64,000 nucleotides of DNA from Thermodesulfobacteriota bacterium (GTDB taxonomy: Bacteria; Desulfobacterota; Desulfobacteria; Desulfobacterales; C00003060): positions 1 through 64,000 of the forward strand of contig JAXHVD010000015.1 in assembly GCA_034189385.1 (NCBI GenBank), read 5' to 3'. The notes under the pieces are model-generated. The model did not search any database and had not been told where the DNA came from. It worked only from the letters and a program-made list of their open reading frames with translations. The translations under genes were made by a program, and so were the position numbers. Below, in pieces: positions 12,664-23,088 of this stretch (position 1 is its first letter; every line of letters begins with the position of its first letter).

Positions 12664-13086
12664 TCACTTCATAAGCATGTGATAGGCCTGCTGAATGGCC
12701 ACGAACTTCTTATGGGCCAGCTCCTGAAACTCCCTGCCCAGGTGCTGGACCTTGTCAGGATGATATTGGGCAACAAGTCTCTTATAGGCTGCTTTGATGT
12801 CTGCCTCGGAGGCACCCTTTTCAACGCCCAGTATCTTATAAGGGTCGCCATTCTCAAAAGGCTCTTCCTTGGCTGCACCACCGGCACCAGAGGGTCTTTG
12901 CCCGCCGCTGGCAGGCCTCGGGCCGCTCCCGACTTGATAGGCCCTTCTGAGTCGTGCCGCCCACCACCATGCCAGGGCCAGCACACCAAGGTCATCCAGC
13001 CATCCAGGACCGATCAAGAGGTCGGGGATCAAATCATGGGGGAAGATAAAGTACAAAAGGGCTACAATCCAAGGTAGATACTTCAT
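12664..13086 (-). CDS. DUF1232/YkvA-like membrane segment fused to a J-domain
   Basis: [11 protein letters not shown]...GWLDDL N-terminus; C-terminal DPYKILGV...YHPDK J-domain. Confidence 0.85.
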
Positions 13087-13166: not shown

Positions 13167-13369
13167 GGTAACGTTCAAAAGTGTTGACTTGCTGGATTTC
13201 TGGACAACCAACCTCGAGATAGGAATAATCGCTTATCTTCGGCATCCAATGCCTTTAGGTAGCCTATGCCATTTGTGTAGATGGCAATGGCTGTATGCCT
13301 GCGTTCAGCGATCATCCCTATCTCTTTAACTGCTTGCGAAGGCCTTTGCCTCAACTTTTGAACGTTACC
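13167..13369. mobile_element. 203-bp MITE with 16-bp perfect TIRs and 8-bp target-site duplication
   Basis: GGTAACGTTCAAAAGT (13167-13182) and ACTTTTGAACGTTACC (13354-13369); AATAATAT at 13159-13166 and 13370-13377. Confidence 0.88.
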
Positions 13370-13450
13370 AATAATATAGTTACGTCTTTGAATCAAACCT
13401 TCTTTGGGTTTTCAAGTGGAGCGTAGTTGGCTGGCAACAAGGAGGGGCCC

Positions 13451-13666
13451 ATGCCGCTATACGAGTTTCGCTGTTCCAAGTGTGGCGCTGAGTTTGAGCA
13501 GATTGTTTTTTGCGCCGATAAGGAGCCTGTAACGTGTCCAACATGTGGGGCCTCTGATCCTGAACGATTGCTTTCCGTGTTTTCCTCGGGTAGGGTGTCC
13601 GGAGCTGGTGCGACCTCGGCAGCCTCTTCTTGCGCACCCTCAGGAAGCGGTTTCTCTTGAGCGTAA
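13451..13666 (+). CDS. FmdB-family zinc-ribbon protein, probably a selenoprotein ending ...SCAPSGSGFS-U-A (ends at 13660 if UGA is a stop)
   Basis: MPLYEFRCSKCG...CPTCG FmdB signature; TGA 13658-13660, then GCG TAA and a SECIS-like hairpin. Confidence 0.85.
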
Positions 13667-13671
13667 GTCAT

Positions 13672-13688
13672 TTCAGCCGTAGGCTGAA
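13672..13688 (+). promoter_or_regulatory. Candidate bacterial SECIS element 1
   Basis: TTCAGCC-GTA-GGCTGAA hairpin starting 12 nt after the UGA; loop GU at +19/+20. Confidence 0.65.
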
Positions 13689-13698
13689 GGAGAAAGGA

Positions 13699-13863
13699 AT
13701 GTCGGAAATACTCATTCTTCTGGGAATTTTTGTTGTGTGGATCCTGCTTCAGGTTTACATCCTGCCCAAGTTCGGCATATCTACGTGACTCAAGAACGTC
13801 TGCCCGGTGGGCGACCAGACAAGACACGTACAAGAAAGGCAACTGCCAGAGCCCCCAAAATAA
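13699..13863 (+). CDS. Small single-pass membrane selenoprotein candidate, 54 aa: MSEILILLGIFVVWILLQVYILPKFGIST-U-LKNVCPVGDQTRHVQERQLPEPPK
   Basis: RBS AAGGAGAAAGGA, ATG 13699, TM helix, in-frame TGA 13786-13788, Cys five residues later, SECIS-like hairpin, TAA 13861-13863; absent from the ORF track. Confidence 0.72.
13798..13815 (+). promoter_or_regulatory. Candidate bacterial SECIS element 2
   Basis: GTC-(bulged T)-GCCC-GGT-GGGC-GAC; bulged U plus loop GU at +19/+20, like the E. coli fdhF upper stem. Confidence 0.7.
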
Positions 13864-14120: not shown

Positions 14121-14196
14121 TGGTAGGCGGTCGCGGATTCGAACCGCGGACTTCCACCGTGTGAGGATGGCACTCTCACCGCTGAGTTAACCGCCC
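14121..14196 (-). tRNA. tRNA-Val(CAC)
   Basis: GGGCGGTTAACTCAGCGG...CCATC-CT-CAC-AC-GGTGG...GGTTCGAATCC...CCGCCTACCA cloverleaf with encoded CCA. Confidence 0.96.
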
Positions 14197-23011: not shown

Positions 23012-23088
23012 TGGTGGGCCGTATAGGAATCGAACCTATAACCTTCTGATTAAGAGTCAGCTGCTCTGCCTAGTTGAGCTAACGGCCC
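23012..23088 (-). tRNA. tRNA-Lys(CTT)
   Basis: GGGCCGTTAGCTCAA...CTGA-CT-CTT-AA-TCAG...GGTTCGATTCC...ACGGCCCACCA. Confidence 0.96.

Follow-up and report, generated by a model that had tools for sequence, protein, structure and literature searches.

A 54-residue candidate membrane selenoprotein and its zinc-ribbon neighbour in a Thermodesulfobacteriota genome

Known bacterial selenoproteins that are decoded through a bacterial selenocysteine insertion sequence (bSECIS) share an in-frame UGA codon, a hairpin with a G in the loop at a suitable spacing, homologues with Cys at the same site, and a host containing the machinery for selenocysteine (Sec). In the legend to Fig. 2 of PMC13188914, the bSECIS consensus is given as G in the first two loop positions and a spacing of 16-37 nucleotides (nt). 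The same properties were identified for a short gene in the stretch of DNA analysed here (the window), which comprises the first 64,000 nt of contig JAXHVD010000015.1 from a Thermodesulfobacteriota bacterium of the phylum Desulfobacterota. This gene, referred to as the membrane gene, codes for a single-pass membrane selenoprotein candidate of 54 amino acids (aa) and is preceded by a gene for an FmdB-type zinc-ribbon protein. It differs from the known bSECIS-decoded selenoproteins in being a single-pass microprotein with a U-x4-C motif (U, Sec). The hairpin of the zinc-ribbon partner is found beyond the true stop codon, in contrast to the bSECIS of known genes, which is located within the open reading frame (ORF).

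Among the eukaryotic selenoproteins, SELENOK was described in the accessible portion of PMC9344019 as having one membrane helix and a cytosolic tail, with a Sec residue that is third from the C-terminus and not part of a CxxU thioredoxin motif. With its predicted single helix, its putative cytosolic tail and a Sec outside CxxU, the membrane protein would resemble SELENOK and SELENOS, which are a possible working analogue, with no sequence relationship being claimed. In contrast to SELENOK, Sec would be located about six residues after the helix and be accompanied by a later Cys, and 13-80 residues follow Sec across the family. For FmdB, a predicted selenoprotein from the GOS metagenome has Sec in CxxU (PMC2398784, as excerpted). 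The upstream gene shares the TIGR02605 domain with this protein; however, the published Sec is placed in CxxU or UxxU, whereas in the upstream gene it would be the penultimate residue, after C-x(4-8)-GFS, with all four zinc-ribbon ligands being Cys and both ribbon pairs being CxxC. Selenoproteins next to ArsR regulators, rhodanese and DsbD/CcdA-type genes are also known from the Tso neighbourhoods, which contain TsoA (LULAxC), TsoB (rhodanese/DsbD) and TsoR (ArsR) according to NCBIfam and the available sections of PMC13188914. However, the models for TsoA (144 positions) and TsoY (366 positions) gave no match at the locus of the membrane gene, nor did the DG and DF models. The tail of YgaP-like PF11127 proteins, which are frequent neighbours, resembles LP(K/R)xG(I/V)xT-C over 18 columns. 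The hhalign probability was only 47% with a pairwise E of 2e-4, which leaves homology unproven, and no member of the membrane family matches PF11127.

A preliminary description of the membrane gene, made from the sequence without database searches, had recognised no named selenoprotein family, and none emerged from the present comparison. In Pfam and NCBIfam (June 2026), no family was identified for the membrane protein at E<=1, and 33 members searched against both libraries and 87 against NCBIfam gave only scattered weak matches to unrelated membrane families. In the Protein Data Bank (PDB), neither a sequence match better than E 0.35 nor a Foldseek match was obtained, a lone helix being uninformative in this respect. 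Table 1 of PMC13188914 covers 119 families or subfamilies by the text of that paper and contains FmdB only as UxxU; in the version at hand, it includes no single-pass microprotein and no U-x4-C motif. None of the nine families newly described in PMC12013277, and none of the eight in 10.1101/2022.07.06.499078, corresponds to the membrane family, as far as the accessible parts of both papers go, and the accessible part of PMC11227280 deals with an unrelated FmdB. Literature searches revealed a description of neither family; the supplements of Haft and Tolstoy 2025 and of Deng et al. 2026 could contain the membrane family. The membrane family is large and is missing from the family libraries and selenoprotein lists searched.

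Codon 30 and the family of the membrane gene

The ribosome binding site (RBS), the ATG, the single transmembrane helix, the TGA at codon 30, Cys35 and the TAA named in the preliminary description were all present in the sequence, the hydropathy profile and an AlphaFold2 model (Table 1). The 19-residue hydropathy window reached its maximum of 2.87 from residue 4 of the protein, and AlphaFold2 predicted one confident helix, the remaining tail being of low confidence. A Shine-Dalgarno-like 4-mer is present in 149 of 161 membrane-family genes (background not computed). A standard gene caller had been expected to give a 29-aa peptide or nothing, and a near-identical truncated form of 29 aa was indeed identified in the protein collection.

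In related genomes, 50 of 61 gave a match at E<=1e-4, every one with an internal TGA. In all 30 extracted loci, the TGA occupies the same position and is followed by a Cys codon at a distance of five codons. A profile search identified the family in 136 of the 301 genomes of the phylum. Seven of these matches were listed without a stop, and the three that were fetched all contain TGA at the site. As a whole, the membrane gene is far beyond chance. Both searches made use of the Sec column, whereas a DNA pattern that ends just before codon 30 was blind to it. Applied to one genome per species (an estimated 2400 stored stretches or so), this pattern returned 120 loci, in which the following codon was TGA in 113, TGC or TGT in six, AGA in one, and TAA or TAG in none. 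The supposition that the stop-type codon at this site is always TGA was thus confirmed on loci found independently of it. One TGA locus (L110) and the AGA locus (L181) are probable chance matches and were excluded from later counts. By record title, the hosts belong to the Desulfobacterota, Planctomycetota, Acidobacteriota, Nitrospirota, Chloroflexota, Myxococcota, Spirochaetota and Bacteroidota.

Downstream of the TGA, the reading frame is open for at least 13 codons in all 170 genes, with an earlier stop in 78 and 72 of them in the other two frames. The TGA members contain Cys at +5 in 84 of 112 cases and Cys anywhere in the tail in 109, which agrees with the conserved downstream Cys that had been predicted; U-x4-C is therefore the majority form of the motif without being universal. 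In a subfamily from mainly Acidobacteriota, Nitrospirota and Myxococcota, the Cys is shifted downstream, often to near the C-terminus, and the Sec-to-Cys spacing ranges from 5 to 24 residues across the family. The part before the TGA is the most conserved, and conservation drops off beyond about +8 after Sec. The criteria of Haft and Gwadz (10.1101/2022.07.06.499078) call for at least ten examples, for a stop-type codon that is always TGA, and for similarity through the site together with Cys homologues of like length. There are 170 TGA genes, the codon was TGA in 113 of 113 stop-type cases among the 120 blind loci, and both the similarity through the site and the Cys homologues were found.

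In the same genus, the module also forms the end of a polytopic protein of 141-190 residues, with a stop codon four residues after the Cys (L315-L322, from genomes G008, G018, G031, G029, G015, G009, G033 and G016). The early stop in this fused form implies that the core consists of the helix and LP(K/R)xG(I/V)xT-U-x4-C, and the polar tail past the Cys is likely to be dispensable apart from carrying the SECIS. By its sequence, the fused protein is probably a third selenoprotein form. Its N-terminal part matched no Pfam or NCBIfam family and only unnamed Atlas neighbours, which gave no functional clue; in most of these loci, it is followed by a gene that we take to be Mur-ligase-like. No relative of the membrane gene was found in viral contigs, and no second copy in the host genome, where a weak match on contig C12 was an out-of-frame chance match within a long ORF. 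Two database proteins retrieved with the family (P0005 and P0047) were rejected as unrelated repeat proteins.

The in-frame hairpin and the selenocysteine trait

The hairpin that had been described downstream of codon 30 is present with its bulged U and its GGU loop, and it passes the bSECIS model, for which an own implementation of the published constraints was used (-7.8 kcal/mol, 17 nt, GGU). Among the TGA genes, 117 of 170 pass this model, compared to 13-21% of synonymous recodings; for the Cys forms, it is passed by two of six, compared to 42% of controls. Among 26 sequences from the genus of the host, pairing of the upper stem is retained in 24-25 with little variation, and U+13, G+18 and U+20 are the same in all of them. 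Conservation does not extend to the lower stem, beneath the bulged U (+11:+26 pairs in 4 of 26 and +10:+27 in 8 of 26). The preliminary description had likened the hairpin to the fdhF-type SECIS, of which the bulged U and the GU in the loop are present in this copy. In twelve Geobacter/Desulfuromonadia genes, the hairpin is located about 6 nt further down and is formed by several pair types. No SECIS family of Rfam matches the hairpin.

The host genome carries selA, selB and tRNA-Sec. Since selA is present in 282 of the 301 genomes of the phylum, it is not discriminating there; six family-positive genomes of the phylum without a selA match each contain selB or tRNA-Sec. The distribution of selA was compared on 50 of the 120 blind loci, namely all six Cys forms and the 44 TGA forms outside the Desulfobacterota. 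The gene is present with 41 of the 44 TGA forms and with two of the six Cys forms. Within the Planctomycetota, it accompanies 19 of 19 TGA forms compared to two of six Cys forms (Fisher p 0.001, related genomes not being independent). An even draw of 161 Planctomycetota genomes contained 11 family members, one of these genomes also belonging to the former set. All 11 were TGA forms and carried selA, the gene being present in 120 of the 161 genomes overall.

Several observations weigh against the interpretation as a selenoprotein. The bSECIS model is failed by 53 of the 170 TGA genes, and the copy in the window does not by itself exceed shuffled sequences in folding stability (z 0.51 and -0.87), three of eight synonymous recodings of this copy passing the model as well. 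The codon for Cys35 lies inside the stem, so that RNA constraint could contribute to the conservation of the Cys; however, the Cys homologues, which need no SECIS, still keep it. The Cys at +5 is absent in 28 of the 112 TGA members, three have no tail Cys at all, and the same was found for two further fetched members. Both selA and the SelB wing domain are missing from three of the 44 TGA-form genomes outside the Desulfobacterota (completeness not given). On the whole, with the conserved TGA, the downstream Cys and the lack of a matching described family, the interpretation as a selenoprotein was supported. The TGA at codon 30 is very probably read as Sec; the membrane gene is real and very probably codes for a selenoprotein decoded by the ordinary SelB/SECIS route.

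The zinc-ribbon gene upstream

The preliminary description was supported as to the membrane candidate and overlooked a probable second selenoprotein immediately upstream. The zinc-ribbon gene matches TIGR02605 with 64.3 bits (cut-off 31.3), and its reading frame reaches a TGA after GFS that is followed by a single Ala codon and TAA. Among the fetched loci, 51 of 52 FmdB-type genes end at TGA. The FmdB genes of two loci, L004 with TAG and L018 with TGA after a different tail, look frameshifted; the others continue for one or two small residues to a second stop or run off the locus. This extension pattern also holds where FmdB is located downstream of the membrane gene.

Independent loci were obtained by a metagenome scan with the FmdB head and GF[S/T], which was blind to the next codon and gave 120 loci, 96 of them with the motif in frame. 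The next codon was TGA in 93 of the 96, and 89 of the 93 have an extension of one or two codons. The SECIS model was passed by 70 of 91, compared to 23% of shuffles. In FmdB relatives, a stem of at least five pairs around a G loop is formed in 46 of 47 compared to 6% of shuffles, and individual positions are paired in several different ways; the analysis was anchored on the best stem, which favours pairing. The hairpin is positioned beyond the true stop of the zinc-ribbon gene. In the window, its 3' arm overlaps the Shine-Dalgarno sequence of the membrane gene, and in most of the genus it lies directly before this sequence. A membrane gene on the same strand within about 600 nt was identified for 26 of 93 TGA-type FmdB loci and for none of 27 other FmdB loci (p 0.0009); in 8 of the 26 linked loci, the zinc-ribbon gene is the downstream one. 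From these sequence patterns, the upstream FmdB gene is likely to code for a second selenoprotein that ends with Sec-Ala.

Seven other FmdB-type genes of the host genome lack the GFS tail and stop with TGA (three), TAG (three) or TAA (one). An eighth, on the minus strand of contig C63, has the same GFS-TGA-Ala-stop tail and a hairpin. Its neighbourhood contains another FmdB gene, a Gly/Arg-rich small protein, a small ferredoxin-like ORF and a protein that is presumably NifB/NifX-like as judged from a motif, with no membrane microprotein adjoining. Many FmdB proteins of the database (P0146-P0169) end with CAPSGG or CAPSG, a tail related to the GFS form, which may represent another truncated Sec form.

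Table 1. Features of the window around the membrane gene (all on the + strand)
Feature	Position	Strand	Basis or remark
Weak sigma-70-like promoter match 5' of the two-gene unit	13346..13375	+	9/12 consensus matches
FmdB-type zinc-ribbon gene, likely 71 rather than 69 aa, with the C-terminus ...GFS-Sec-Ala	13451..13666	+	TIGR02605; TGA, GCG, TAA
TGA of the zinc-ribbon gene, likely penultimate Sec	13658..13660	+	51/52 neighbouring FmdB ORFs; 93/96 independent relatives
Hairpin, candidate SECIS for the zinc-ribbon TGA	13671..13689	+	G-first triloop 13679-13681, 18 nt after TGA; pairing in relatives
Shine-Dalgarno-like AAGGAG	13687..13692	+	6 nt 5' of the membrane-gene ATG; sequence
Membrane gene, 54-aa single-pass membrane selenoprotein candidate	13699..13863	+	ATG 13699, TGA as codon 30, 24 further codons, TAA 13861-13863; ORF, relatives, blind codon-30 pattern, hydropathy
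Predicted membrane helix, residues 2-24; predicted N-out, C-in	13702..13770	+	AlphaFold2 pLDDT ~90; K/R bias
In-frame TGA, codon 30, likely Sec	13786..13788	+	Codon counts in the 120 blind loci
In-ORF hairpin, candidate bSECIS	13798..13815	+	Loop GGU 13806-13808, 17 nt after UGA, bulged U 13801; family-level support, weak as single copy
Cys35 (TGC), C of U-x4-C	13801..13803	+	Codon also within the hairpin stem; also kept in Cys-for-Sec homologues
Inverted repeat behind the TAA	13866..13916	+	-17.6 kcal/mol, z -1.55, T run absent; possible transcript end

Gene neighbourhoods and proposed role

The best overall explanation, to which we assign a probability of about 0.58, is a tiny membrane selenoprotein that, likely in concert with the zinc-ribbon partner, would take up and pass on sulfane sulfur or oxidising equivalents. 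As for its topology, Lys and Arg are more common on the C side of the helix in 159 of 161 membrane-family members. Because of this bias, an N-out/C-in anchor is predicted that holds Sec just inside the membrane; this orientation, which is read from the charge bias alone, is considered quite probable.

Neighbouring genes were surveyed in the 4-kb flanks of 79 diverse loci, the expectation being derived from the host genome alone and related loci not being independent. Identified were ArsR regulators (16 loci), FmdB (14), rhodanese or YgaP-like proteins (12), zf-HC2 anti-sigma factors (9), thioredoxin/TlpA (7), extracytoplasmic function (ECF) sigma factors (6), resistance-nodulation-division (RND) proteins (6) and DUF302 (5), with expected counts of 0-1.4 for the enriched classes. 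Kinases (10 compared to 10.9), ABC ATPases (9 compared to 8.2) and response regulators (7 compared to 14.9) are not enriched. At least one of seven enriched classes is present in 45 of the 79 loci, and single loci contain TauE, a fusion of a metallo-beta-lactamase (MBL) and rhodanese, DsrE, a CsoR-like repressor, CcdA, rubrerythrin or the hybrid cluster protein. ArsR/CsoR-type sensors were reported to regulate sulfurtransferases, persulfide dioxygenase (PDO) and TauE in the available portion of PMC13467558. The enriched neighbours, this control of sulfur genes, and the loci with TauE, MBL-rhodanese, DsrE and CsoR-like genes together favour, by a modest degree, a role of the protein as a Sec/Cys redox finger that is tethered to the membrane and serves under sulfane-sulfur or oxidant stress.

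On this basis, UGA codon 30 would be decoded via SelB and the SECIS, resulting in a membrane protein with a predicted cytoplasm-facing Sec/Cys pair. At the membrane face, the selenolate would attack a persulfide, disulfide or peroxide. The Cys further down the chain would then resolve the intermediate to a selenylsulfide, which would be re-reduced by a thioredoxin-like partner or by the Cys/Sec tail of the zinc-ribbon protein. We consider this chemistry somewhat more plausible than its absence. The membrane protein would likely act together with the upstream zinc-ribbon protein, which likely ends with Sec as well. A more elaborate version is doubtful: a two-gene selenium relay, absent from the catalogues, in which a soluble zinc ribbon with penultimate Sec, decoded through a SECIS in the 3' untranslated space of its gene, and a 54-aa anchor with Sec-x4-Cys would exchange sulfane sulfur or electrons through Se-S or Se-Se bonds as a bacterial counterpart of SELENOK/SELENOS, and in which the SECIS of the zinc-ribbon gene covers the RBS of the membrane gene, so that Sec read-through would switch the partner on.

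Not all of the neighbourhood data point the same way. None of the seven enriched classes occurs at 34 of the 79 loci, and the background was taken from one genome; the ArsR neighbours tested score below the BigR cut-off and are thus not shown to be persulfide sensors; and metal transporters also adjoin the membrane gene. The preliminary description had proposed a redox or metal-binding motif, and one alternative is a selenoprotein that uses its Sec/Cys pair at the membrane to bind or sense soft metals or metalloids such as Cu, Zn, Hg or As and to pass them to an exporter or regulator. ArsR/SmtB regulators at 16 of the 79 loci, RND pumps at six, single loci with an SO_0444 Cu/Zn exporter, a P-type ATPase, a cation efflux protein or Fur, and the zinc ribbon of the partner protein would fit such a function. 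However, rhodanese/YgaP, thioredoxin-like, TauE and DsrE genes are more common at the same loci, and a Sec-Cys spacing of 5-24 residues would be easier to reconcile with a flexible resolving thiol than with a metal site of fixed spacing. Metal handling is considered unlikely as the main role.

A regulatory function is less probable still. Here, the ratio of the full-length to the 29-aa form, or the redox state, would act as a signal rather than in catalysis and report the selenium or sulfur status to the zinc ribbon or to an anti-sigma factor. In addition, the RBS of the membrane gene may become accessible when the upstream TGA is read through. The overlap of the upstream hairpin with the Shine-Dalgarno sequence would allow such a selenium-dependent coupling, and the position of this hairpin in the genus, the ArsR, ECF sigma and zf-HC2 neighbours and the high conservation before the TGA are in line with it. 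In other lineages, however, the zinc ribbon is located downstream (in the linked loci mentioned above) or further off, 65 of the 79 diverse loci have no FmdB gene, and Cys forms occur in genomes without selA.

It is very improbable that translation truly stops at the TGA, or that another code reads it as Trp or Cys, with a 29-aa membrane peptide as the product and the downstream Cys codon kept for RNA structure only. At this site, the database proteins contain Cys (82 cases), Trp (13) or some other residue (5), or else they end there (28), and the proteins ending there or containing Trp, the unconserved tails past about +8 and the three genomes without selA or SelB wing domain could be taken in its favour. 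However, the 82 Cys-for-Sec proteins share the downstream Cys pattern and continue in register, TAA and TAG are absent from the 120 loci although the long ORFs of the host genome use TGA as stop in only 696 of 1750, and the Trp entries are likely due to read-through by gene callers, as judged without a check of the DNA. Another code is opposed by the true stops of the 112 TGA-form genes (58 TGA, 27 TAG, 25 TAA, two not reached), since a TGA used this often as a true stop is not generally recoded. Least probable of all is a lipoprotein signal with Sec/Cys as the lipidated first residue of a short exported peptide: the three residues before Sec loosely resemble a lipobox, but Thr is present at -1 in 176 of 176 (pattern-fixed in part of the set), Pro, Gln and Arg are common at -2, a basic N-region is absent, the K/R bias indicates a cytoplasmic tail, and the module also ends a polytopic protein.

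If the membrane gene and its zinc-ribbon neighbour code for selenoproteins as proposed, gene callers have omitted or shortened to 29 residues a family that occurs in more than 40% of the genomes sampled from the phylum (136 of 301) and is represented in at least seven others, and they have removed two residues from the members of a second family. The selenoproteome counts of sulfate reducers, Planctomycetota and Acidobacteriota would then be too low. The architecture of a selenoprotein with a single membrane pass, up to now familiar from eukaryotic SELENOK/SELENOS, would extend to bacteria, in which SECIS elements beyond the stop codon would also occur naturally. Both proteins are small enough for synthesis and assay. 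Since the membrane gene is also present in cultured Geobacteraceae, the function of small Sec proteins in anaerobes would be directly testable; Geomobilimonas luticola, Pelotalea chapellei and Geobacter sp. OR-1 are among the cultured carriers of the family.

Among the loci, several further arrangements were observed. In five from Nitrospirota (L067, L073, L089, L111, L135), the membrane gene directly follows rpoA-rplQ on the same strand at the end of the ribosomal protein operon. In four Planctomycetota Cys forms (L066, L068, L072, L085), it is placed between a zf-HC2 anti-sigma-like gene and a YgaP-like gene, the latter being followed by a gene similar to cytochrome bd subunit I. With regard to transcription, four sigma-70-like sites were found compared to 1.1 in shuffles, which is no evidence of function. 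Only small shares of the RNA runs matched overall; in one wetland metatranscriptome, two low-depth contigs of relatives (less than 90% alike) span the membrane gene, by which transcription is not shown. Divergent from the two-gene unit, a gene with DUF1232 and a DnaJ domain (12664-13086, minus strand) was identified, which is present in 27 of the first 30 loci and in one other. The window also contains genes for tRNA-Val(CAC) at 14121-14196 and tRNA-Lys(CTT) at 23012-23088, both on the minus strand.
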